Source: Heptranchias perlo
Lineage: Eukaryota
Length of the DNA stretch: 64,000 nt
Assembly: GCF_035084215.1 (NCBI RefSeq)
Contig: NC_090340.1
Coordinates: 5,642,001 to 5,706,000, forward strand
Reading direction: 5' to 3'
Below the pieces are notes generated by a model. The model saw only the letters and a list, made by a program, of their open reading frames with translations. It did no database searches and was not told where the DNA came from. Each line of letters begins with the position of its first letter. Within the stretch, counting starts at the first letter, position 1. Positions 4,496 through 45,400 of the stretch are shown here, in pieces. A program made the translations under genes and the position numbers.

Positions 4496-5307
4496 CATTC
4501 ATACTGCATTTAACAAGGAATTTCAGTAAAGAAATGCCCTGTCTATAAAACAGTACAGCTTTCTACTTGCTGATAACGACACTTGCTCAAAAATAAGGAA
4601 ACTTTTCCAGTTTCCAGAATCTCTGCAAAATGTGTCAACTGACCTATATCATCAATTGTGATTTTATTTTATATTTAGCAAAGACCGTGAATTCAAGGCT
4701 GGGAACTCAAACGCTTCATTTCAATTTTAGCATTGTCAGGATGAAATGTCCTGGGGTCACATGCAATTTTATACATGCTTAAAAACCCTATTTGGAAAGA
4801 AGAAGATAGAAAAGTAAATTCCCATTCTCACGATTTATACGACACGATTCCATTTTCTCCGATGAAGAGACAGTTCCTGAACCGCCATTCGGTGGAACTG
4901 GCGAGTCTCATATGATAAAACCAGTCCCGTGGTTCAGACCGAGGGTCGAACTCGATCCTTTCTGTCCAGAAGAATACAATGTTCTCTGTGTAACGACAGA
5001 ACACGAACTGTACTATTGCAACAGTTTAAGCGGAGCATGCGGATTGGAACACATTGATAATTATAAAATGAGACCCGATGTTGAAAATATTTTTGTGAAC
5101 TGTAACAGTGATACGACAATGGCGTAGAAGAGGAAGTTCGGAAAATAATTTCTCTAAATACAATGAAGAAAGGTTCAGATTAGGCTCTAGTCAGGACAAA
5201 TAATGATTTTCGGTACAACTACGATGCCCGACATATAAAAACAAAGGGTGGATATCGTGTACAGTTCAGACATTTTGCTTTACCTCTTTTTGCTCTTTTC
5301 CGTTTCG

Positions 5308-5613
5308 CTGCCCCCGTTCCTCTCAAAAGTGTCTCCATAACATCTGAAGGGGCTTCACCTGGTTCTCTAAGACTCCAGTGCAGAACGGCTGCTTTTTACC
5401 CGAAGGATTTCAAACTCACCTGGTATAAAAACGGCACTGAAATTGTGACAGGATTTAGAACTGAACAACTTGCAAAGACAGAGGGACTGTATGAAGTTAT
5501 CAGCTCCTTAGAAGTGACACAACCAATCGAGCGCGACTCAGTTTACACTTGTCAAGTGTATCACGTTGCAATCTCGATTCCAGCAATTGACAACTACACC
5601 GTTGCTAACGAAG
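5308..5613 (+). CDS. Gene A exon 3, Ig C1-set domain (open frame, acceptor mutated)
   Basis: LRLQCRTAAFYPKDFKLTWYKNG...GLYEVISSL...YTCQVYH, donor GAAG|gtaaaa; upstream reads tttcg where copy B has tttag. Confidence 0.85.
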
Positions 5614-5980
5614 GTAAAATTACAGAACAAGCAGTATTTTAATAGAATTCTGAGTTCCTTCCCCCAGTGATCGAGTATCCTCGAGTATCCATCGCAGATA
5701 ATGGATAAATACAATAATTTTTGGGTAGGGCTTATTACAGTTGTTTGCATGCTAATCTGTCACCTCAGAAGTCTGATTTCACTCCAGCTCCCATTGAAGG
5801 TTCCTGGTGTATGGATGTGATGAGAATTAAGTTGGACACAAGCAACATAATCATTAGTGGACACCAGCCCTCAGCACAGTTTCCATAATTCATGTTAACT
5901 GGCGGAATATTGTCAGTTCACTAAGAGAGGGCACGGTGAGAGTTGATGCCAGAAATCGAACCATGCGTTCATGGGGATAG

Positions 5981-22280: not shown

Positions 22281-24145
22281 AATCTCGTCAGCAGGAGTCT
22301 GACGAAGGGCCATTGACCTGAAACGTTAACTCTATTTCTTTTTCCACAGAAGCTGTCCGATTGTTGAGTATTTCCAGCATTCTCTGTTTTGATTTCACAT
22401 TTCCAGCATCCGCAGTATTTTGCTTTTCACATAGGACCTTAATAGCCTGCAGGCAGAAGCGACTGCAATCTCACGAACATGTTCTGAACCCAAGCCACAG
22501 AGGCGAATGACTAAGTCACTGCATCCCTCCGGCTCCTCGATGTTGCTGGTTATTGGATTGTTCGGTTATCGCGATGTTACAGTACGGTGTCCAAAGCCCA
22601 GTGCGCTGTGAATATCATGTTTTATTACGTGAATTACAAACACCAAAACGGTCCAGTTATTAACTGAGTATCTGGGTATCCATTCTGCACACAGGGCTGC
22701 AACAGCTTCATCTAGCTCTTCGTGGTGAATAACTGAGAATTTCTAGTATACATCTCGCACGTCGAAAATGCTATCTAATTTATACCGGCTAACAATTCGG
22801 ATCCTGATTGCGCCAAACAGGCTCAGAAAAGGGAGTTTTCTGCGCCTCCCTGTAGTCTCTGTGTATAGAGAGAACGTGAATGGATTGATGTGGACGGAAG
22901 TGTGACGTTAATGAGAAAGAGAGCAGTCAAGGAGGGGAGATCGAATCGAATTGCGGGCGGAGAATGTGATCGGAAAAATAGAGAGATAGAACGAAGTGAT
23001 GAAGGAGATTACTGCCCAATTGAAGGACAGAAAAGAAACGAAGTTTGTCGAATTGTCAGCGTCATCACCTGGACTAAAGGAAGCACAAAAAAGGTTGGAT
23101 ACAGGATGAGGAATTGAATCTGATTCGCTGACTAAGGCGTGACTAATTCGCTACTTCTTACACCGATGGGATCGCGATTATCACTGGGCTCCGACGAAGG
23201 CTCAAAAATGGGGTCCCGAATAGTAACAGGGCTGCCACAGCTTTACAAGGATTACCGCAATATAGAGTCGAAAAGCATAGAAGGAGGCCATTCGACCCAT
23301 CGCGCCTGAGCTGCCTCTGAAAGAGCGAACCAAGCAGTGCCACTCCCCCATTCTTTCTCCATATCCCTGCAATGTTTTCCATTCAAATATATGTCTAATT
23401 ATCTTTGGAAAGTTGTATTGAATGTGCTCCCATCACCCTTTCAGACAGTACATTCCAGATCACAACAATTCGCTACGTATAACAAACCCTTCTCATCTCT
23501 TGTAAGACTGTTTCGACCTGATTATTGGTTACAATAATCATCTTTTACTTAAACAAAAGCAAGGACTAATACATGCAATTATCTCGACATGTAATTATCA
23601 ATGAGCATGGAATCACATTACCCCGTTGTCCTCTGGGTGGAGAACGTAACTCAGTCACTGCCTCGAAACCTGCCTTCTTCCTTCATGCTGAGCTGGCTTC
23701 CTTCTCTGCAATTAAATGTTTGCTTGTTCTGGTATTTCAAAGGAACGTAAGGTATCTTAAACACAGCCTGGGTGCTTGATGTGGCTCGGGGCCGGTCTGT
23801 CTGCTAATGATTTCATTGTCCTGGCTAATCTCCAATATGAGCACATTTCAGCATTCATGGGATGCTTTCCACACACTATGGAATGGGGCCGACCTGTCTG
23901 CTCGTTCATGTTGTTTTTCCATTGTCACGGCGAACCTCGAAAATTAGTAAATCCTTATCTGACAATAACCTCTGAATGTGTTTATTTTTTCTTTAAGACA
24001 ACTTGAAATAATTAATCTTTCTAGTCTGCAGCCTGCTCATGGTGGAAAAATACTGAGTCTCTGTTAGAAAAACGCGAAGTGCTTGATAGATGACCAACAA
24101 AAGAATAACTTCCACCAATGGTGTTCCGCTGGAGTCTTAAAAAAG

Positions 24146-24509: not shown

Positions 24510-27140
24510 TGAGTCATAGAGTCATAGAGTTATACAGCACGGATAGAGGCCCTTCGGCCCATCGTGTCCGCGCCGGCCATCAAGCCCTGTCTACTCTAAT
24601 CCCATATTCCAGCATTTGGTCCGTAGCCTTGTATGCTATGGCATTTCAAGTGCTCGTCCAAATGCTTCTTGAATGTTGTGAGGGTTCCTGCCTCCACAAC
24701 CCTTTCAGGCAGTGAGTTCCAGACTCCAACCACCCTCTGGGTGAAAAAGTTCTTTCTCAAATCCCCTCTAAACCTCCCGCCTTTTACCTTGAATCTATGT
24801 CCCCTTGTTATAGAACCCTCAACGAAGGGAAAAAGCTCCTTAGTATCCATCCTTTCTGTGCCCCTCATAATTTTGTACACCTCAATCATGTCCCCCCTCA
24901 GCCTCCTCTGCTCCAAGGAAAACAAACCCAATCTTCCCAGTCTCTCTTCATAGCTGAAGCGCTCCAGCCCTGGTAACATCCTGGTGAATCTCCTCTGCAC
25001 CCTCTCCAAAGCGATCACATCCTTCCTGTAGTGTGGCGACCAGAACTGCACACAGTACTCCAGCTGTGGCCTAACCAGTGTTTTATACAGCTCCATCATA
25101 ACCTCCTTGCTCTTATATTTTATGCCTCGGCTAATAAAGGCAAGTATCCCATATGCCTTCTTTACCACCTTATCTACCTGTTCCGCCGCCTTCAGGGATC
25201 TGTGAAATTGCACACCAAATCCCTCTGACCCTCTGTCTTGCCTGGGGTCCTCCCATTCATTGTGTATTCCCGTGCCTTGTTAGTCCCTCCAAAGTTCATC
25301 ACCTCGCACTTTTCCGGGTTAAATTCCATTTTCCACTGTTCCGCCCATCTGACCAACCCATCTATATCGTCCTGCAGACTGAGGCTATCCTCCTCGCTAT
25401 TTACCACCCTACCAATTTTTGTATCATCAGCGAACTTACCGATCATACCTTTTACATTCATATCCAAGTCATTAATGTAGACCACAAACAGCAAGGGACC
25501 CAGCACCGATCCCTGTGGTACCCCACTGGCCACAGGCTTCCAGTCACAAAAACAACCTTCGACCATCACCCTCTGCCTTCTGCCACTAAGCCAGTTTTGT
25601 ATCCAAAGTGCCAAGGCACCCTGGATTCCATGGGCTCCTACCTTCTTAACCAGTCTCCTGTGGGGGACTTTATCAAAGGCCTTACTGAAATCCATGTATA
25701 CCACATCCACTGCGTTACCCTCATCCACACGCCTAGTCACCCCCTCAAAAAATTCAATCAAATTAGTCAGACATGATCTTCCCTTGACAAAGCCATGTTG
25801 ACTATCCCTGATTAATCCTTGCTTCTCCAAGTAGAGACTAATTTTGTCCTTCAGAATTTTTTCCAATAATTTTCCTACCACTGATGTTAGGCTCACTGGC
25901 CTGTAGTTCCCCGGTTTTTCCCTATTCCCCTTCTTGAATAATGGTACTACATTAGCGGTTCTCCAGTCCTCTGGCACATCCCCTGTGGCCAGAGAGGTTC
26001 TGAATATATGTGTTAGAGCCCCCGCAATCCCCTCCTTTGCCTCACACAGTAGCCTGGGATACATTTCGTCCGGGCCTGGGGATTTATCCATGTTTAGGCC
26101 TGCTAAAACCGCCAATACCTCCTCCCGCTCGATGTTAATATGTTCGAGTATATCACAGTCCCCCTGCCGTATTTCTATGTCGACGTCGACCTTCTCCATA
26201 GTGAAAACAGATGCAAAAAATTCATTTAGAGCCCCTCCTACATCTGCCGCCTCCACACACAGATTGCCATTTTTGTCCCTAATGGGCCCCATTCTTTCCA
26301 AAGTCATCCAGCTACCCTTAATATACTTATAAAACATCTTAGGATTTTCCTTTATTTTGCTCGCCAGTGTTATTTCATGGCCCCTCCTTGATCTCCTAAT
26401 TTCTTTTTTAAGTATCCCCCTGCACTTTTTGTACTCCTCTAGGGCTTCCTCCGTCCTTAGCCTTTTGTATCTTCCAAAAGCCCTCCTTTTTTTCCTAATC
26501 CATTCTCGTATATCCCCTGACATCCAAGGTTCCCTGGAGTTCTTGGAACCACCCTTGACCTTTACGGGAACATGTTGCCATTGTATGGTCTCAATCTCCC
26601 TTCTGAAAGACTCCCATTGCCCCGATGCGGATTTTCCTACAAGCAGCTGATCCCAGTCCATTTTGGCCAGATCCTGCCTTATCCTATTAAAATCGGCCTT
26701 CCCCCAATTTAGAACCTTTATTTCCGGCCCCTCCCTATCCTTTTCCATGACCACCTTAAATCTCACCGAATTATGGTCACTGTCACCAAAGTGCTCACCT
26801 ACTGGCACTTCTTCCACTTGGCCGGCCACATTCCCTAGAATTAGGTCCAGTACCGCCCCCTCTCTTGTAGGACTTTCAACATGCTGGCTCAAAAAGATCT
26901 CCTGGATGCACGTTAAGAATTTTGTACCCTCTAAGCCTTTTACACTCTGGGTATCCCAGTTAATATTGGGGAAGTTGAAATCCCCCACTATTATTACCCT
27001 ATTATTTGCACAATTTTCTGAGATTTGCCTACATATCTGTTCCTCTATCTCCCCCTGACTGTTTGGGGGCCTATAGTACACTCCCATCAAAGTGCTTGCC
27101 CCCTTTTTGTTTTTAAGCTCCACCCACATGGCCTCATTAG
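24510..27140 (-). mobile_element. Young CR1 LINE, 5'-truncated ORF2 (partial endonuclease plus RT), one frameshift
   Basis: ORFs 25192-27129 (645 aa) and 24596-25213; FADDTK motif; (ctctatga)n tail at 24510-24535. Confidence 0.95.
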
Positions 27141-27349
27141 ATCCCCTCTCATTTTTCTAAACTCGTGTTGATACAGGCCGAGTCGACCCAATCTTTCCTC
27201 ATACTACAGTCCTGCCATCCCAGGAATCAGTCTGGTGAACCTTCGCTGCACTCCCTCTATCCTAAGAAAGGATATACTTGCCATAGAGGGAGTGCAGTGA
27301 GTTGCACTCGCTCAAGAACTTGTAAATCGGTATTCCACCCTGATGGACA

Positions 27350-29400
27350 TTTGTGATTATTAACTTAGCATCACTTTCTACTGTATGCAATAGTTTCATT
27401 AACTCCTAATACTGTAAAAGTTATCGCACTAGTTCAAGTTTCATTCCTGATATTACAAGTTCTATTTGTTTCTACAAAGTATAATTCTCATGTCCATGAT
27501 GGCGTAGCCATTTTAAAATCCCGCATTGTCCTAACATTTCAAACACATACATTATTCCAAATCGAATACTCTATGAACACTTCATTAATAGTTATGTTGG
27601 GACAAGTCGTAAGTGCACACATAAACCCCTTCCCGACATACACGACTTTAGTTTGTCTTCCCCTATCAGATTTAAGATCAAAATGAAACCTACTTCCTGT
27701 CCCTTCTGGGGTAAAACAAGGATCACTATTCTCAAGTCTACTTCCTTCACAAATAAATCCAAGACCTCCTTCGTGTGTGCATGCCTCCACTGACATAAAT
27801 TCCCATCGTCCATCTGTCCTTTTAGTTGCTAATAAGCGATGATCAGTTGTCATTACGCGTGCTGCAATTTGATGTAATCTTAGAATTATTATAAGATCAG
27901 TGGAGAGGTATGTCGCATTCATCAAGGTTAGTACATAGCCTACATCATATGGAAAGATTACTATATGCCACCAAATCGACAATTTACGTTGAATCTCTGA
28001 GGCGCTCTCCCATATTATCGTTTGCATCTCTGGGGATATAATTCTTCTTTCCCCATTCCTTATCTTACCAATGACCACAGTTTGTAGCCACGCTTGGTGT
28101 TTTATGTAGAAATTGCAAAGAATACATACTCTTGTTTCATCCCTCGTGCTGCCAACAGCAACTAATGATCTTTTTCATTGTCACGATTCCAATCAAGGAA
28201 CATGTGCGCTTGCCCATTACCAATTTCTCCAAGCAGGTTACCAGGGATTTACCCATATCCCTTACTGAGTGACCTATCTTATCTAATTTATTCGTCAATG
28301 TTTCCACATTCATACTATTCAAAACTCCTACTGCAGCACCTCTTCCTTCCATTACTGTACCCAGGATATCACGTTGACGACCTGTATGCGATTTTGAAGA
28401 TTGATGCGGCAGCGTGAGCAACCAAATATTCTAACCTGTATTTCGTGTTTTAATGAAGCGGCACTGGTCGGTTTTATTGAGGAGATATCAGTTCATTTTA
28501 GTGATATTATTATTTTCTTCAGGATCCTACTTTGATTCTCCATTAATCCTTGTGGCGTATTGGTTCGTACTACATTTGGAGTCTTTGTTAGTAAAACGGG
28601 AAATTACCCTGTAACAATGGACGGTCCATAAATAGTCCAAATCCCTCAACTCTCTGGTCTCAAGCGGGTCTTATTTCCACCTTTACAACACATATTTAAG
28701 TGTACTTGTTGTGTGTTGTTACACCATTCATAATCAAATTTATACCAGGGTCCCGAGGTAAACATTTATGGCTGGGAGTATTACCTAATCTATGTTGCAC
28801 AATTCAAACTAAAAGTCAGAACCTTACCATCTGAACTCACCATCATGATGTTATAATTAGGTCCAATTAATTTCTTTGGTCCTAATTAACTATATGTACT
28901 TCTATATTAATGTCCTTATCGAGTTTTGCATGTAAGCGGCTATTCCATGTTATAAAATAACATTAATAATCTACGGCTACACAAATGTCAATCAATTGTC
29001 CACATATTTTGAAGTGCTATGTCCCCAAAACTCTTGAATCGTCTGCAGTAGCCAAACCCTCGCACCAGTAGACTCATAAGCTGTGGTTTGTGTAGTTGGT
29101 GGGTCAAGGACAAGTCCAAAACAACGTCTGGTCACCGAGTGTGAAGCTACCTGACCTCCGTTGCTTTTCTCTGTTGCATCTTGCCATAACAGGTCCAAAT
29201 TATAGATGTGTTTTGCCCTTCAGTATCTGTCAACGTTATTCCACCCACCCCAGTGGATGTCTCTTGTCTCCAAATGATGATGATCACCTGGATAGTGTTG
29301 CTCTCAAAACTTTGTGATGCCACATTCGGCTGGAAGGGCATTCTGAGCCTCCCCAATCCAGCCCTGGGTCACAGCCCATGGACTCATGAATATCCGTAAC
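27350..29400 (-). pseudogene. env: ERV env remnant
   Basis: Cleavage site plus fusion peptide GRQR|DILGTVMEGRGAAVGVLNSMNVETLTNKL (28379 downward), then QAWLQ...IIWESASE...WW...W..MSVEAC...GFICEG...PC...VYVGKG..C...C...NNVCV. Confidence 0.75.
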
Positions 29401-29599
29401 ATTGGTCTTCGTGTGGATAATTTGCTCTTTTTAAAATAAAGCACAGTATCTGATTATCGTTCAGTTTTATCATCTGCTGCTGCCGATTTGAGCTATCAAG
29501 TATGGCACAATTTAACATCCTTGTTATTTCCTTTTCCCGTATACTGTACTAAGTACACATCCAGATTTCGTCTGTGTTCTCTGGGAAAGGGTCCTTTCC

Positions 29600-30720
29600 A
29601 TTTACGCTCAAATACCTGTTCTCGTTTCCCATAATGCAGAACCATAACAAAATATCGTACAGCATACAGAGAGTTTTACTTCTTTGTGGAAAAGCTTTTA
29701 AACCTGATTTTTAGATTTCCCAGTGTTACTTGCCTCAAATCAATTAGTTTCGTTTACATAGTCCACCATCTGATTTAACCATGTACTTCCGATCGCTTCC
29801 AACAACAAAGGAGTTGCTGTGGGCCCTAAAGTGTGTCCTGGTGTGAGCATCGGTCTACTCGTCATGGTGAGTTACCTATGGTGGCAGGAGGAGTTGTTAG
29901 AATTGCCATAAGACACACGGGCAGCATGTTTGCCCACTGAGTGAGGTGATCTGCACAAAACTTCCTAAACAAAATTTATAATGCCCGATTTGCTCTTTCT
30001 ACCTCACCCGACGATTGGGGATGATGTGAGATATGCAGTTTCTGCTCTGTTCTCATGAGCTTTTGGAGTTCAGTCAAGATTTTGCCTGTGAAATGTGACC
30101 CTCGATCACTATCTACTTATGCAAGGAGTCGCACAACACCAGGTTATAGTACAACAGCTTTATTTGAAATCACAAGCTTTCGGAGTTTTGCTCCTTTGTC
30201 TACCCCAGTCCATCACTCTCTACTTATATCGATACTCCCCACCTGCACATCACTTCACTCAACAATATTCTACCTGCAGTAATAATGTTGTTAGTCCGAC
30301 ATGGAAATACTTCTATCAATTTTGTGAAATTATCAATAATGACGAAATAATGCAAGTAGCCTGAAGGCGCTTGGTGTAAAGGACCGATGAAATCAACATG
30401 TAAATTGGTCCACGGTCCTTCAGGGGGAGGTGTGCTTCGAAGGAAAGCAAGATTAATCTGTCAGGCTGGTTTGCGGTGTCAGCATACGAAAGATCTCGCG
30501 ACACTGTGAATGAAGTGATCTTTGCATTCAGGCCGCCATGCAACTTTTTGGATTTAATGCGCCGTGGTCTATGAAGAAAAATGACCACCCCGGGCATGAC
30601 CGTGGAACATGTCAAAGAATCCTTCAGCCATAGTATGCGGAACACACAGAATTGGGAAAGATTCGGTCTTGGATTGATACATAGGTAACAAGTGTGCATT
30701 ATCGCCAAGCATGGTTTCGG
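29600..30720 (-). pseudogene. pol: ERV integrase remnant
   Basis: HGHARGGHF zinc-finger half; GPWTNLHVDFIGPL...IIDNFTKLIEVFP; VDSDRGSHFTG; HISHHPQSSGEVERAN (D,D,E triad recognisable). Confidence 0.9.
30121..30211. mobile_element. Tiny Penelope-like terminal fragment inserted in the ERV integrase
   Basis: caacaccaggttatagt...cacaagctttcggag matches 6037-6088, followed by the inverted ccccagtcc; flanked by atcact(a/c)tctacttat at 30105-30120 and 30212-30227. Confidence 0.6.
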
Positions 30721-30899
30721 GGGACGATGGCGTGGGTTGACGTAGCAGTTTAATTTCTTGGTGCCAAGCCATGCTTTGCTCATACAATGGTCAGGGCACT
30801 TGTCGGCTGTGTAAGTCGAACTTGACGGTATGACTAGCTGTGGCACAGACACGGCCATTGGAGAATGGACCAAATGGATACTCGGTGTGGGCGGCGCCT

Positions 30900-32650
30900 T
30901 GCCAGCCTCGTTGGCTTAGCAATTGTACCAACTGAGTGTTGATTGGTTCCTTTGGTGTGGGCCTTTACCTAACCTATGAAGCGTGGCTGTCCTCTATCTC
31001 TTAATGGGCTCCAAAACATTCTAATTACATCACCATGTACAAGTAATTTCGCAGCAGAGTTGTGGTAGTTATTCTTGCAATATGGAGCAAGTAACAACGT
31101 AGTATTGATAGCATACGCACTATCAGACCGAATGTTAACAGGTTGTTCGGAGGTTTCAATTACAGCTGGGATGCATGCTAGGTTGCTGAGGGAAGTAAGG
31201 GTGGCAATTGAGGGAGTACTGGACTTAATCTTCCATTCATCTTTAAAAACGGGGGAGGTGCCAGAGGGCTGGAAAATTGCAAATGTTACACCCCTGTTCA
31301 AAAAAAGATTTAAAGATAAAGTCAATTATAGGCCAGTCAGTTTAATCTTGACGGTGGGGAACCTTTTAGAAACGGTAATCCTGGACAAAATTAATAGTCA
31401 ATGGAAAACTGTACATTCATTAAGGAAAGCCAGCACGGATTTGTTAAAGGCAAATCATGTTTAACTAACTTGATTGATGAGGTAACAAAAAGGGTTGATG
31501 AGGTTAATGCGGTTGATTTAGTGTGTATGCACTTCCAAAAGGCGTTTGATAATGTGCCACATAATAGGTTTGTCATCAGTGTTGAAGCCCATGGATTAAA
31601 AGGCGCAGTGGCAGCATAGATACCAACTTTAAAATTTGTAGATGACACAAAACCTGGAAGTGTAATGAACAGTGAGGAGGATAGTGATCGACTTCAAGAG
31701 GCCGTAGACAGGCTGGTGAAATGGGCGGACACGTGGCAGATGAAACAACACAGAGAAGAGCGAAGTGGTACATTTTGGTAGGATAAACGGTAGAATTCGA
31801 AAAGGGATGCAGGAACAGAGAGATCTGGGGTTTTCGAGCCCAAATCATTGTGGCAGGCCAGATTGAGAAAGTGGTTAAAAAAGCATATGGGATCCTGGAC
31901 CTTATAAATAGAGGCATAGAGTACAAAAGCAAGCAAGTTATGATGAACCTTTATAAAACACTGGTTCGGACACAACTGGAGCATTGTGTCCAATTCTGGG
32001 CACCACACTTTAGGAAGGTTGTGAAGGTCTTGGAAAGGGCGCTGAAGAGATTTACTAGAATGGTTCGAGGATGAAGGACTTCAGTTACGTGGATAGACTG
32101 GAGAAGCTAGGGTTGTTCTATTTAGAGCAGAGAAGGTTGAGAGGAGATTTGATAGAGGTATTTAAATTCACAAAGGGCCTAGACAGAGTGATAGAGAGAA
32201 ACTGTTCCCATTGGCGAATGGCCAAGAACCAAAGGACACAGATTTAAGGTGATTTGCAAAAGTATCAAAGGCGACAGTGAGTGCTTATGACCTAGAATGC
32301 ACAGCCTGAGCGGGTGACGTAGGCCGATTCAATTGTGGCTTTCAAAAGGGAATTGAATAAGTTTTTGAAAGGGAAAACAATGCAGGGCTACGGGGAAAGG
32401 GTGGTTGAATGGGACCAGCTGGATTGCTCTTGCGAAGAGCCTGCACGGAACCTATGTGCCGAATGGCCTCCTTCCGTTCTGTAACCATTCTATCATTATA
32501 TGATTCTATGAAAAGAACATTGCGACTTCAGCATAATGCGCTGAGTGTGGCACGCACTTCTGCTGGATAATTTATTCAGGGAGGACTACTGCCCATAAAT
32601 GGTACCTCGTTTTGTGAAATGAGGAACCATCGACGTAGACATCGGCAACA
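30900..32650 (-). pseudogene. pol: ERV retroviral-type RNase H, split by a CR1 insertion
   Basis: DVYVDGSSFH and HSAHYAEV (32515-32650); after the CR1, VNIRSDSAYA...VKAHTKG (30930-31165). Confidence 0.8.
31167..32510 (+). mobile_element. CR1 LINE fragment inserted in the ERV RNase H
   Basis: GEVPEGWKIANVTPLFKK, SQHGFVKGKSCLTNL, EHCVQFWAPH; tgattctatg tail at 32501-32510. Confidence 0.9.
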
Positions 32651-32759
32651 TCCTCCAACGAAATCTTCTGAACTGGGTTATTAACGAAGTCTATTAGCGG
32701 TAGTAGACACTCATATCGTTCTCCCCGGTATTGCATCACCTCTGGTAGAAGAGTTGCCT

Positions 32760-33100
32760 ATTTTGGCGCAATGCCAAAATATCGTACCATCAACAACAAT
32801 ATCCAAAGGCTCAAACGAGCAGATGACACCAACGTATCTCCCGGTTTCAGCAATAGGTTAAGTGGAGTGTGCGGGGAGTGGAGCACCAAAGTTTGCAATC
32901 CTATGATGTACCTAAAGTATTTCACAGCCCAAAAGGTGCCCAACAAATGTCTTTGTAATCCCTGAACAAATCCACTCCTGCCAATCCGCGATGCATAAGC
33001 AAAAGGTAAGAGCTTATCTTGGACAACTTGACACTGGACTGCCACTATACTCTGGTCTGATGTTCCTACCTCCACATGGAAAGGCTCGTTTGGTCCCCTA
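32760..33100 (-). pseudogene. pol: ERV degenerate Ty3/gypsy-type RNase H (tether/connection) domain
   Basis: PFHVEVGTSDQS...LLPFAYASR...RHLLGTFWAVKYFRYIIG...HSPHTPL...VSSARL..W.LLL. Confidence 0.8.
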
Positions 33101-33129
33101 TTTCCTCATCCTGACCCTTTATTTGTTCC

Positions 33130-34100
33130 CCAATTAATCCTATCCATCTGAGGTCCCTCATCCACTGACATTGGTTATCCCCAGTTCTCGAATTTTGCTG
33201 CCTCCCGTTGGTCTGGCGATGTGGCCTTCGACATCACCCCAGGCCTCAATAGTGAGTCTCAAAGTTTCGTCCCACCTATCGTTTTTTACAGATAGATACT
33301 CCCAGTGCAGTTTCCAATAACGGTTGCAACAGACTTATAAGCATTTCATAAAACAACTTCTCGTTTCGTCGATCAGGCGGCACTTGGTTTGTTTGTACAA
33401 GTGCTGGCTGAGGTGGCACAATGGATTGTGTCATCCATTACACTTCAAGCAATCGACGGTATAACGCGGTAGTGTGCTCTATAGGTCCCTGTATGGTTGG
33501 TGCAAAATTTGCTTCACATTTAAGGTGTTTATTCCCAATAAATCCAAAAGTCCTCCAAACAGCACACCGGACCCATTTACTGCATGATCGGCAACGGTAA
33601 TACATGATTGTAAGCCCTCATCCAGGGCGGCAAATAAAATAGTTTTTAAATCACCGTTTTCTAGCTCTCCATGGCCCGTTTAAAATCTCCCCAAGCTCGA
33701 GTGAGCACAATAGGGTCATTCCCCTTAATGGGCCTGCCTCGCTTCCCTTCATTAAGTTGCTCAGAAGTTAATTCTTCTGCCGAAGACGCTCTTGGGATAG
33801 GAATGGCAACTCTATCGACGGTTGTTTCAAAACTTGGAAACAAGAAGTTTTACCAAAAAAGGTAAAATGATGAGGCAGTACCTCGGCGGCAGCCATATCT
33901 AGGATACCCTCAAGGCACTGTTACTAAAAGAAGACTGCCTAACTATTATTGTCAAGTTGTTTAAAGTAGCGTAAAATTAGTTTCTCTCCATGAAGCAATT
34001 CAATTGCTTTGAAGTATTTTTAAATTAGCGAGCCCGACGGTCACCTATTCAAACACATCACGAAGGTTTTCTACATTGCAAGGCTTCGTGCCACACTTAG
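33130..34100 (-). pseudogene. gag: Probable ERV gag remnant
   Basis: Fragmented coding-like sequence (e.g. DLKTILFAALDEGLQS) immediately 5' of pol; assigned mainly by position. Confidence 0.4.
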
Positions 34101-34510: not shown

Positions 34511-37100
34511 AGCACTTTGATGGGAGTGTACTATAGGCCCCCAAACAGTCAGGGGGCATAGAGGAACAGATATGCAGGCAAATCTCAGAAAATTGTGCAA
34601 ATAATAGGGTAATAATAGTGGGGGATTTCAACTTCCCCAATATTAACTGGGATACTCAGAGTGTAAAAGGCTTAGAGGGTACAAAATTCTTAACGTGCAT
34701 CCAGGAGAGCTTTTTGAGCCAGCATGTTGAAAGTCCTACAAGAGAGGGGGCGGTACTGGACCTAATTCTAGGGAATGTGGCCGGCCAAGTGGAAGAAGTG
34801 CTAGTAGGTGAGCACTTTGGTGACAGTGACCATAATTTGGTGAGATTTAAGGTGGTCATGGAAAAGGACAGGGAGGGGCCGGAAATAAAGGTTCTAAAAT
34901 GGGGGAAGGCCGATTTTAATAGGATAAGGCAGGATCTGGCCAAAATGGACTGGGATCAGCTGCTTGTAGGAAAATCCACATCGGAGCAATGGGAGTCTTT
35001 CAGAAGGGAGATTGAGACCATACAATGGCAACATGTTCCCGTAAAGGTCAAGGGTGGTTCCAAGAACTCCAGGGAACCTTGGATGTCAGGGGATATACGA
35101 GAATGGATTAGGAAAAAAAGGAGGGCTTTTGGCAGATACAAAAGGCTAAAGACGGAGGAAGCCCTAGAGGAGTACAAAAAGTGCAGTGGGATACTTAAAA
35201 AAGAAATTAGGAGATCAAGGAGGGGCCATGAAATGACACTGGCGAGCAAAATAAAGGAAAATCCTAAGATGTTTTATATGTATATTAAGGGTAAGAGGAT
35301 GACTAGGGAAAAAATAGGGCCCATTCGGGACAAAAATGGCAATCTGTGTGTGGAGGCGGCAGATGTAGGAGGGGTTCTAAATGAATTTTTTGCATCTGTT
35401 TTCACTATGGAGAAGGACGATGTAGACATAGAAATACGGCAGGGGGACTGTGATATACTCGAACATATTAACATCGAGCGGGAGGAGGTATTGGCGGTTT
35501 TAGCAGGCCTAAAAATGGATAAATCCCCAGGCCCGGACGAAATGTATCCCAGGCTACTGTGTGAGGCAAAGGAGGAGGTTGCGGGGGCTCTGACACATAT
35601 ATTCAGAACCTCTCTGGCCACAGGGGATGTGCCAGAGGACTGGAGAACCGCTAATGTAATACCATTATTCAAAAAGGGGAGTAGGGAAAAACCGGGGAAC
35701 TACAGGCCAGTGAGCCTAACATCAGTGGTAGGAAAATTAATGGAAAAAATTCTGAAGGACAAAATTAGTCTCCACTAGGAGAAGCAAAGATTAATCAGGG
35801 ATAGTCAACATGGCTTTGTCAAGGGAAGATCATGTCTGACTAATTTGATTGAATTTTTTGAGGGGGTGACTAGGCGTGTGGATGAGGGTAACGCAGTGGA
35901 TGTGGTATACATGGATTTCAGTAAGGCCTTCGATAAAGTCCCCCACAGGAGACTGGTCAAGAAGGTAGGCGCCCATGGAATCCAGGGTGCCTTGGCACTT
36001 TGGATACAAAACTGGCTTAGTGGCAGAAGGCAGAGGGTGATGGTCGAAGGTTGTTTTTGTGACTGGAAGCCTGTGGCCAGTGGGGTACCACAGGGATCGG
36101 TGCTGGGTCCCTTGCTGTTTGTGGTCTACATTAATGACTTGGATATGAATGTAAAAGGTATGATCGGTAAGTTCGCTGATGATACAAAAATTGGTAGGGT
36201 GGTAAATAGCGAGGAGGATAGCCTCAGTCTGCAGGACGATATAGATGGGTTGGTCAGATGGGCGGAACAGTGGCAAATGGAATTTAACCCGGAAAAGTGC
36301 GAGGTGATGCACTTTGGAGGGACTAACAAGGCAAGGGAATACACAATGAATGGGAGGACCCTAGGCAAGACAGAGGGTCAGAGGGATCTTGGTGTGCAAG
36401 TTCACAGATCCCTGAAGGCGGCGGATCAGGTAGATAAGTTGGTAAAGATGGCATATGGGATACTTGCCTTTATTAGCCGAGGCATAGAATATAAGAGCAA
36501 GGAGGTTATGATGGAGCTGTATAAAACACTGGTTAGGCCACAGCTGGAGTACTGTGTGCAGTTCTGGTCGCCACACTACTGGAAGGATGTGATCGCTTTG
36601 GAGAGGGTGCAGAGGAGATTCACCAGGATGTTACCAGGGCTGGAGCGCTTCAGCTATGAAGAGAGACTGGGAAGATTGGGTTTGTTTTCCTTGGAGCAGA
36701 GGAGGCTGAGGGGGGACATGATTGAGGTGTACAAAATTATGAGGGGCACAGAAAGGATGGATACTAAGGAGCTTTTTCCCTTCGTTGAGGGTTCTATAAC
36801 AAGGGGACATAGATTCAAGGTAAAAGGCGGGAGGTTTAGAGGGGATTTGAGAAAGAACTTTTTCACCCAGATGGTGGTTGGAGTCTGGAACTCACTGCCT
36901 GAAAGGGTTGTGGAGGCAGGAACCCTCACAACATTCAAGAAGCATTTGGATGAGCACTTGAAATGCCATAGCATACAAGGCTACGGACCAAATGCTGGAA
37001 TATGGGATTAGAGTAGACAGGGCTGATGGCCGGCGCGGACACGATGGGCCGAAGGGCCTCTATCCGTGCTGTATAACTCTATGACTCTATGACTCTATGA
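34511..37100 (+). mobile_element. Young CR1 LINE, 5'-truncated ORF2; near-identical inverted copy of 24510-27140
   Basis: ORFs 34618-35778 and 35845-37011 are almost identical to the minus-strand copy; (ctctatga)3 tail. Confidence 0.95.
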
Positions 37101-42460: not shown

Positions 42461-45400
42461 GTAGACTTTTATTTTTTTTTGTTATCAATCTATCTTTCCT
42501 GAACAAGAAACAGCACATGAACTATTTCTTATAGTTGATGTACAATTGGATATTATTTTATGCTGTTTTAAATTAATGTTTGTTATCATGTCCCTTGCCA
42601 GAGGGAAACATCTAGTTGAGTAAGGTGATGTTTTTTTTATGATCATTCAATGAGGAAACAATTTCAACAGATGGAAAATAATTCTCAGAATTAGGTATAT
42701 TGAATTACTAAAGTATCAATGGAGTGGATGGAGGATCTTATTTTACCGGTTCAGGTCATCTTCCCTATATATGAATTATTTAACGGTGTGGCTTCTTTTG
42801 TTGATAGTTGCTGTGGATACTTTGGGCAAGTTGTCTCCGGGTATTGTGCAAAAGAAGGCGCTAAGAGGTACGAACATTACCTTGCAATGTCCTTTTCCCT
42901 TCGATCTCGATCATTCAAACATCAGCATTTACTGGTGGAGAGAGGGCATCGGTACCTTTCTGCAAGAAGAGAGCAGAAAACAGTTCCAAATAAAAAAAGG
43001 CTGCGCCTATCTTCATCTCTTGAATGTGACTGTCCCTGACAACGGAACGTATCATTGTTTGGCTGAAGATCAGAAGCAAAGGGTTAGAAAAGAATCTCGT
43101 GTGCACGTTATTGTTTTTGGTAAGTATCAGTGGAACTGGAAATGTGAAGAGTTTAGTTGCTTTTGATATTCAAACTGCGTTTGACATGGAATTCCAATAA
43201 TGAAATGTCCTGTGTATAAAAGAATACAGCTTTCTTCTTATTTATAACGACACGCGTTCAACAATAATGAAACCTTCCCACTTCCAGAGCCTCTCCAAAA
43301 TGTGACAACTGAACAATATCTTCAATTGTTGTTTAATGTTATGTTCATCAAGGAAATAAATTCCAGGCTGGGAAGTAAAATGCTTCTTTCCAATTTTAAC
43401 ACTATGTACCCCTATGAAACATCTCGGGGTTATTTGCAATGTTACAGATATTTAAAGATCCAATGGAAAGAAGAGGATAGAGGAGAAAGATTCCCATTCC
43501 CTCATTTAGACGGCGCGCTTCCCGCTTCTGGTATCCAGATAAAATTCCTGAATCGCCGTTCGGTGAACAGGCGAGATAAACCTGATAAATCAGGTGCCGT
43601 AGTCCAGACCGAGGTTTGAACTGGATCCTTTACATACAAATGAAGGAAATGTTCTTGATGTAACAAGAGAACGCGTCCTGTTCAATTTCAAATGTTTAAG
43701 CGTAGCATAGTCATTCGTACACCATAATATTAATAAAAAGAGGCCCAACTTTGGAAATAAATGTTGTTAAATACAACAGTTATACGTCAGTACTGCTGGG
43801 GAGGAAATTGGGATATTAATACCTGTAGATATATTGAAGAAATATTTAGGTTGAGTTCCATTCAGCATAAATAATAATTGCCAATACAACTACGGTGCCC
43901 CGTCACAAGCGCTGGTTTATTTATGAAAACAGAGTGTAGAAATTCCTACATGTCAAATATTTTTCTGCATCTCTTTTTGTTCTTTACCATTTAGCTGTAC
44001 CCTCTCCGCTGAAGATTGTCGCCATAACATCCGAAGGGGCTTAATCCGCTTCTCTGCGACTCCAGTGCAGAACGGCTGCTTTTTACCCGAAGGACTTTAA
44101 CCTCATCTGGCAAAAAAATGGTACCGAAATCGTGACTGGATTTAGAACTGAACAACAGGCAAACACAGAGGGACTGTATGAAGTTACCAGCTCCTTAGAA
44201 GAGACACACCCAATCGAGCGCGGCACAATTTACACCTGTAAAGTATATCACCTTTCAAACTCAATTCCAGCAAGTGCCAGCTACACTGTTGGTAATGATG
44301 GTAATTTTATAGCACATATGGTATTGTATTGATTTCCGTGTTTCTTCTCGCACTAATCGAGCTTCCATCGCAGATAATGGGTAAATACAAGAAAATGCGG
44401 GAAGTGTTTCCTGCAGTTGTTCGCATATCATTCTGTCACCTCCGAAGTCTGGTTTTACTCCAGCTCCCATCGATCGCGTGAAGATTCCATTTCTGTTGGT
44501 TATTGGGATATGATGAGAAATAATTTGGACACAAGCAACTTAGCTAATAGTGGACAATAGTCCTCAGCACAGTTTCCATAATTCATGCTAACTGGCAAGT
44601 GATATTGCAAGTTCACTAAGAAAGGGCACGGTGAGGGGTGATGCCGGAAAACCGAACCATTCGTCATTGGGATTGAAATAGTTAGTGAGGGCTGGAGGCA
44701 TGGAATGGGGGAATTGATGACTTTGACATCCCTGCATCCAAGACGCAATCCAAGGTCATTCCCTGCATCATCAGATTCACAGTGCGGAGCCCTCGACACT
44801 GCACCAAATATAGAATAATTAGGTTGTTCTTGTGGAAAAATGGAAAAAGTCTTCGTGAGGCTGTGATCCGAAAGGCAATTCTAGTGAATTTGTAAATACG
44901 TCCCAGTGTCTTTAAGAGTTCGCCCTCAATCAGCAATTGTTATTTAATGTTATGTTTATCAAGGAAAGTAGATTAAAGGCTGCGAACTATATTGCGTCTT
45001 TCTAATTTTAGCACTAAGTATCCGTATAAAACATATTGTGGTTATTTGCAATGATGTAGATGTTTAAAGGACCAAAGGAAAGAAGAGGATAAAAGAGGAA
45101 GATTCCCATTCCTTCATTTAGACCACGCGCTTCCAGTTTCTGCGATTCAGATAAAATTCCTGAATCGCCGTTCGGTGAAACAGGCGAGACACATAAGATA
45201 AATCAGATGCCGTAGTCCAGACCGAGGTTTAAACTGGATCCTTTATCTACAGAAGAAGAAAGTGTTCTCTAAAAACGTAACGCTTCCTGCACTATTCCAA
45301 CTGTTTAGCACAGCAAGACGATTCGTACACCGTAAAATTAATATAAAAGAGGCCCAATTTTCGAAATAAATTTTGTAAATACAACAGTGATACATCAGTA

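Follow-up and report, generated by a model that had tools for sequence, protein, structure and literature searches.

A dead endogenous retrovirus in a likely cartilaginous fish, with a probable class III-type Pol and an Ovex1-type envelope predicted to contain a paramyxovirus F-like core

The window analysed here, a stretch of 64,000 nucleotides of DNA (C18:5642001-5706000 of a 3.25 Gb assembly), is rich in pieces of the long interspersed nuclear element (LINE) CR1 and carries, on its minus strand, an old and broken copy of an endogenous retrovirus (ERV). A sequence-only reading of this locus had described a minus-strand succession of a possible gag, a tether (a degenerate first RNase H), a second RNase H, integrase and env, and had proposed a lokiretrovirus with a fusion-protein-like envelope (Env) in a cartilaginous fish. 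This order was recovered, all of the motifs cited for it could be located, and the gag about which it was hesitant proved to be present. The surviving pieces, including a remnant of the 3' long terminal repeat (LTR), are given below in window coordinates, with P0002 denoting a Pol protein of X. tropicalis, ORF3 the third open reading frame of chicken Ovex1, and L numbers other loci.

33095..33733, minus strand: gag remnant (middle part), found by blastn against sister copies
32750..33093, minus strand: tether, the degenerate first RNase H (Pfam RT_RNaseH, E 5e-9; 51% to P0002)
32510..32640, minus strand: RNase H, first half (motifs VYVDGSS and SAHYAE; the P0002 alignment reaches 32521)
31170..32510, no strand given: CR1 LINE fragments, about 1.3 kb, lying inside RNase H and separating its halves
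30870..31168, minus strand: RNase H, second half (motifs SDSAY and VKAH; Pfam RNase_H, E 0.01)
29490..30817, minus strand: broken integrase that contains a short insertion (about 30120-30212; P0002 alignment; tree)
27306..29408, minus strand: env, broken (cleavage site, fusion peptide, heptad and Cys-rich regions; colinear with ORF3 269-790)
24583..27300, minus strand: young CR1 LINE in the 3' part of env (97-99% identity to an inverted CR1)
24091..24141, minus strand: membrane-proximal piece of env with an HHWW motif (ORF3 homology)
23500..24094, minus strand: 3' LTR remnant with terminus CTTACA (comparison with the full LTR of L027, about 705 nt)

Stops and frameshifts interrupt every gene, so that all frames are broken, and the 5' LTR, the leader, the 5' part of gag, the protease, the reverse transcriptase (RT) and the transmembrane segment of env have been deleted; the locus is a dead copy with no evident present activity. 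Because protease and RT are gone, the tether is joined straight to gag. The point of this deletion, at about 33092, is where sister copies L015-L017 possess an additional 1.66 kb encoding protease and RT. Sister copies also retain a zinc knuckle just downstream of the part represented by the gag remnant (Pfam zf-CCHC, E 1e-5), and the env transmembrane segment is present in L018 and L019.

The dual RNase H reported earlier was borne out by Pfam and by the P0002 alignment, although its second member does not form one intact block. The CR1 fragments that split it are found in five of six paralogues on C18, whereas L018 and those dispersed copies that span the site lack them; in the uninterrupted copies L018 and L027 the Pfam RNase_H match improves to E 2e-9. 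The limits first given for the element (27350..34100) enclose its core but were misplaced at both ends. On the 5' side it stops at about 33733, the sequence from 33733 to 34100 being host flank common only to the C18 paralogues, whereas on the 3' side about 3 kb of inserted repeats are followed by the membrane-proximal env piece and the LTR remnant, ending at 23500. The young CR1 in env is one of an inverted pair (24583-27054 and 34552-37024) that lie 7.5 kb apart, differ by a Kimura two-parameter (K2P) distance of 0.026 and flank most of the ERV.

The host itself is very likely a cartilaginous fish, as had been supposed, since a major histocompatibility complex (MHC) class I alpha-2 exon of the genome has its best match in PDB 6LUP (133 bits, the next being 105), a nurse shark molecule, with grass carp the next entry group (PMC8236899). 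The assignment rests on this one exon; a short IgNAR-type pattern, an uninformative probe, had no match, and the Atlas pointed no further than Chordata.

The pol of the window is colinear with P0002 at 51% over 197 aa (E 3e-50), the integrase part reaching E 3e-77. For the RT of its sister copies, the nearest proteins were from X. tropicalis (56%), followed by coelacanth and frogs (46-53%) and then by proteins at 36% or less. The RT motif was PQG in six of nine family rows and LQG in one, with no match in the remaining two; in the published alignment it is PFG in 24 of 24 Loki rows and PQG in snakehead retrovirus (SnRV). In a careful RT tree, built from 31 of the 56 rows of a quick tree, the family and P0002 were united with support of 100/99 within an 11-row clade from frog, coelacanth and shark (96/96), Retroviridae were supported at 99/94, and lokiretroviruses formed a separate group (100/99) as sister to Retroviridae. 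An approximately unbiased (AU) test rejected joining the 11-row clade with lokiretroviruses (p-AU 0.0015). The integrase and RNase H phylogenies that the sequence-only reading had called for likewise placed the family outside the lokiretroviruses. In the integrase tree, which includes the window's own integrase (P0032 was dropped and CGIN1 itself was not in the tree), the family again grouped with P0002 (100/99) and apart from loki (100/100); the RNase H tree, for which the tool gave a long-branch warning, joined loki to foamy viruses (95/90), as published, with the family outside. Furthermore, RTs of family copies scored 175-332 bits against the Xenopus domain versus 76-156 against a loki domain, and this order was reversed in the genome's real loki remnants, described below.

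In these comparisons SnRV was represented by L033 from IMG/VR, whose RT is identical to the published row; foamy-type reference genomes were found by motif and were of mammal type only, fish foamy-like ERVs not being among them; loki reference proteins were retrieved using a loki remnant of this genome, with P0047 corresponding by eye to the published Loki-Lca row; and the labels of gamma, epsilon and gypsy references were inferred from their Pfam domains and the names of their hosts. Six chimeric gene models (P0061, P0065, P0066, P0069, P0099 and P0101) were excluded from alignment A2.

Judged by its Pol sequences, then, the family is a retrovirus within Retroviridae that belongs to neither loki, foamy nor class I viruses, and it is probably of class III/clade Huo. 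Known SnRV-like, clade Huo and class III elements resemble it in having a PQG-type RT and a clear tether plus RNase H (PMC4422223, PMC6001957), and a class III-type ERV is known from the elephant shark (CmiERV lineage I; Han 2015, PMC4422223), clade III making up the majority of shark ERV RTs (PMC11089739). The tether and second RNase H are shared with lokiretroviruses (Wang and Han 2020, PMC7947760), but they also occur in other retroviruses and are not diagnostic. Three further candidates were rejected: a gamma/epsilon (class I) ERV, the Pol falling outside the rows labelled class I and the Env lacking both an immunosuppressive domain (ISD) and CX6CC; a foamy virus (clade Tu), the Pol standing apart from the mammal-type foamy rows and Gag having a zinc knuckle; and a Ty3/gypsy element with env, the RT not grouping with Metaviridae and the RNase H being dual rather than single. 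It was also seen that loki integrase is sister to NYNRIN-like class III-type integrases of frogs and coelacanth (98/94), from which it may have been derived.

For env, the analysis recovered the fusion peptide described earlier, preceded at 28382 by the cleavage site GRQR|DIL, as well as the heptad and Cys-rich regions and a surface (SU) part of about 345 codons; as also claimed, no CX6CC or ISD-like motif was present in three frames of 29450-27300. An exhaustive HMMER search with an unbroken 211-aa stretch of env returned 47 matches at E<=1e-3 where a word-indexed search with the same stretch had found none. The best match (P0057, E 1e-29) was the 873-aa product of chicken LOC422926, which fits Ovex1 ORF3 in length, neighbouring locus number and description (Carre-Eusebe 2009, PMC2717909). 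Twenty of the 47 matches were looked up, and the 15 that were named came from 11 birds, three turtles and one alligator, with no teleost, lamprey or amphibian among them. ORF3 residues 269-790 and 800-816 align colinearly with the window env (33% over 270 aa, E 3e-55), in a homology that takes in the membrane-proximal motif as well as the cleavage site, the heptad and the Cys-rich region. On the strength of this alignment, we assign the window Env to the chicken Ovex1 ORF3 family.

Ovex1 likewise has no CX6CC or CKS17 motif, its RT was placed near SnRV and class III, and in 2009 the identity of ORF3 as an Env was left uncertain, no gamma-type motifs having been found (PMC2717909). While Ovex1 is a single conserved locus with open frames and without clear LTRs or a Gag zinc finger, the window family is multicopy and dead, with LTRs and a zinc knuckle; the comparison with Ovex1 made here is one of Env. 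No significant BLASTP match was found between the window Env and that of SnRV, whose placement next to the window family is itself weakly supported.

A structural model of chicken ORF3 was generated with AlphaFold2 from 53 natural homologues. In a Foldseek search with this model, 38 of the 39 listed PDB rows were paramyxovirus F proteins (best E 2e-9). In VIA, the top eight rows were all paramyxo- or pneumovirus F, and their alignments began at the F2 strand and ran on until the beta domains ended. ORF3 362-758 matched residues 24-449 of human parainfluenza virus 3 F with Z 10.6; Nipah postfusion F reached Z 10.2 (5.3 A over 261 residues) and foamy virus postfusion Env Z 7.5. Residues 223-356 aligned instead with the immunoglobulin (Ig) domains of CD4 (Z 8.3). 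In BFVD, baculovirus F and several viral F proteins ranked at the top, and the Envs of walleye epidermal hyperplasia virus and walleye dermal sarcoma virus, which according to a review lack gamma-type hallmarks (PMC9967133), were also matched (E 7e-9 and 2e-7). An unnamed viral protein of 928 aa, A0A384ZVF2, gave a full-length match to the ORF3 model (E 2e-21).

The fusion core of ORF3 is thus predicted to be paramyxovirus-F-like, with both subunits contributing to its domains, and to lie behind N-terminal Ig-like domains. Since the region of ORF3 represented in the window takes in all of the predicted F core, the same fold can be transferred by homology to the window Env, so that the F-like Env of the sequence-only reading finds moderate structural support through the modelled fold of a relative. 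Foamy Env and paramyxo-/pneumovirus F have been classed together as class Ib fusogens (Fernandez 2024, PMC11468914), orthoretroviral Env being assigned there to class Ia, with SnRV not mentioned in the available part of that paper. Foamy Env differs in that its receptor-binding domain is inserted between the subunits, whereas the Ig-like domains of the ORF3 model are N-terminal to the F core. Loki Env is F-like too, with a furin site, fusion peptide and coiled coil like those of the predicted Ovex1-type Env (PMC7947760), but lokiretroviruses differ in RT, RNase H and integrase, in PFG, in a short SU and in showing no detectable match to this Env when a partial loki env model is compared.

Taken together, these data make it quite probable that the locus is a dead ERV copy with an Env of the Ovex1 ORF3 type, predicted to have an F-like core, and with a Pol that lies within Retroviridae and likely belongs to class III/clade Huo. 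Several points weigh against this reading. The RT evidence comes from sister copies, the window having no RT of its own, and ERV-L, alpha, beta, lenti and Ovex1 Pol were not among the rows of the trees, so that clade Huo is not proven. SnRV joined the family's clade at 88 in the Shimodaira-Hasegawa-like approximate likelihood-ratio test (SH-aLRT) of the 56-row quick tree; the careful tree left its position open, and the integrase and RNase H trees put it with gamma/epsilon rows. At the sequence level the window env matched no Pfam family, PDB chain or ESM Atlas cluster, and its homologues gave no match to PF00523. The ORF3 model is of middling quality (predicted local distance difference test, pLDDT, 64.5; predicted TM-score, pTM, 0.45), TM-scores are low (0.21/0.39), a Z of 10 lies within reach of long helices according to the tool's own note, and the fold prediction is that of ORF3 rather than of the window's own fragment. 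Finally, locating copies by an env DNA search biases their census.

Among the alternatives, it is improbable that the element is a recombinant of class III-type gag-pol with a loki env, or that Ovex1-type Env derives wholly from loki Env. In favour of this, F-like Envs occur on both sides (PMC7947760), lokiretroviruses had entered this host lineage, and the grouping of loki integrase with class III-type integrases (98/94) means that modules have been swapped. However, an Ovex1-type profile gave no match (E 0.35) to P0056, a partial gene model with the start of a loki env and the sole one compared, about 100 residues precede the RPKR of P0056 as against the long SU of the window, and the named env matches are confined to birds, turtles and alligator. 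A short exact-word search for the env motif in part of the loki supplement gave 0 matches. Less probable again is a retroviral Env that shares no ancestry with F and resembles it in fold only through a generic coiled coil and beta-sandwich; low TM-scores, large deviations in several rows and the lack of a sequence-level match to F would fit this, but the uniform identity of the top eight VIA rows, with alignments running from the F2 strand through the beta domains, and the ranking of viral F proteins in BFVD do not. That the element is a true lokiretrovirus, as first proposed from its recognisable tether and second RNase H, F-like Env and lack of gamma motifs, and as the NYNRIN-like names of its nearest Pol proteins might suggest, is very improbable in view of its PQG motif, the three trees, the AU test and the RT scores.

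If the window Env is indeed F-like, the original virus would probably have carried a fusogen of class Ib as defined by Fernandez 2024. Cleavage of Env at RQR by a host furin-type protease would set the fusion peptide free, refolding of the long heptad helix and a membrane-proximal helix on a beta-rich scaffold, as in F, would merge the membranes, and the N-terminal Ig-like beta-sandwich domains would be the likely attachment module.

The later history of the element may be read from its other copies. The env DNA search gave 19 matches, and 14 other loci were examined. Fuller copies with LTRs and RT, which the sequence-only reading had hoped for, do exist: sister copies retain zinc knuckle, protease and RT, and L027 has the order LTR-gag-pro-pol-env-LTR, its two LTRs (about 705 nt) differing by K2P 0.094. 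At the substitution rates of 2.2e-9 and 2.2e-10 per site per year used in the cited literature, this pair would be about 20 to 210 million years old, although the rates are borrowed and the host's own may differ. The primer-binding site after the 5' LTR of L025 and L027 resembles what we take to be a tRNA-Arg site; the corresponding site of C18 copies (L021:1165-1235, L022:1085-1155) differs from it.

Six copies lie on C18, 3.1-4.8 Mb, and share with the window both the flanking host sequence and a nearby Ig C1-set exon; they are best read as a single insertion multiplied by tandem duplication. The eight dispersed copies all have an internal deletion in env, five sharing one breakpoint pair and two another, with a wider deletion in the eighth. 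These common deletions suggest that env-less derivatives spread inside cells, and among the copies examined a near-full env persists only in the duplicated C18 cluster. Divergence is 0.10-0.14 for dispersed copies and 0.15-0.20 for C18 copies, except for two recent duplicate pairs. The virus may thus have entered the germline and given rise to env-deleted derivatives that spread intracellularly, while the window insertion would have been copied passively as the C18 cluster duplicated, before decaying through deletion and CR1 insertion. The Ig C1-set exons stand at window 43955-44326 and 5256-5678 (both plus strand) and also in L012, L014, L021 and L022; they are SIRP-like by an Atlas lead and belong to a gene cluster that was duplicated in tandem, together with the window ERV, and that covers 2.5 Mb or more of C18.

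Related shark families carry a second type of env, which the ORF3 profile matches weakly (best E 1e-5). It was observed in a younger, high-copy family (L089-L091, L108 and others; RT identity 47-48%), where env has KKR|GLL, VDLSKC and a W-rich membrane-proximal motif and several copies have a common internal env deletion. Closer pol relatives (L092, L094, L101, L103 and L106; about 54-68% RT identity) also bear this second env type, a sign that envs were exchanged within the clade. A further high-copy class III-type family, comprising L153 (C11:68.91 Mb) and relatives at 41-44%, has an internally shortened env and is sister to L090 in the RT tree.

Although the window locus does not extend the loki host range as first suggested, other loci of the same genome do. 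A search of the genome for the loki RT motif gave one exact match, on C8 (control 0), and a protein search added loci on C6 and C10. By the RT trees, and for C8 also by the integrase and RNase H trees, the following are pol remnants of lokiretroviruses.

C8:53.54-53.56 Mb: L109/L110/L152
C10, two loci: L114/L148 and L115/L150
C6: L113/L146

Their RT pieces fall in the loki clade, those of C8 and C10 beside coelacanth loki (96 in the quick tree; C8 96/93 in the careful tree), as do the C8 integrase (100/97) and the C8 RNase H. All are degraded, and no env was seen beside them. Wang and Han had recorded lokiretroviruses in 0 of 6 chondrichthyan genomes screened (PMC7947760). By their placement in these trees, the remnants are genuine, adding cartilaginous fish to the loki host range. 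No statement on lokiretroviruses in sharks or on an F-like fold of Ovex1 ORF3 was found in the literature searched, from which subscription papers, Repbase, the Odin and Troyka papers and bioRxiv supplements were outside.

The window locus is in itself ordinary, being a dead class III-type ERV in a shark, a kind already known. Its Env indicates that an F-like envelope does not by itself identify a lokiretrovirus and that an F-like fusion machine is likely to be more widespread among retroviruses than published, which bears on the choice among the four scenarios for the origin of retroviral env set out by Wang and Han (PMC7947760), while the loki remnants fill the cartilaginous-fish gap in the range of that group. 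A broader picture, which we put forward tentatively and would rate somewhat below an even chance, is that Ovex1-type Env is an ancient class Ib lineage with an Ig-like head running from sharks to birds, that gamma- and beta-type Envs are later replacements, that the conserved avian gonadal ORF3 is a co-opted F-like fusogen, and that the loki range includes cartilaginous fish. If this holds, Ovex1-type Env together with loki, foamy and walleye virus Envs would imply that the ancestral retroviral Env was an F-like fusogen. The Env homology itself ties a shark ERV to a bird gene for which the identity as an Env was left open in 2009, giving that gene a testable fold and mechanism.

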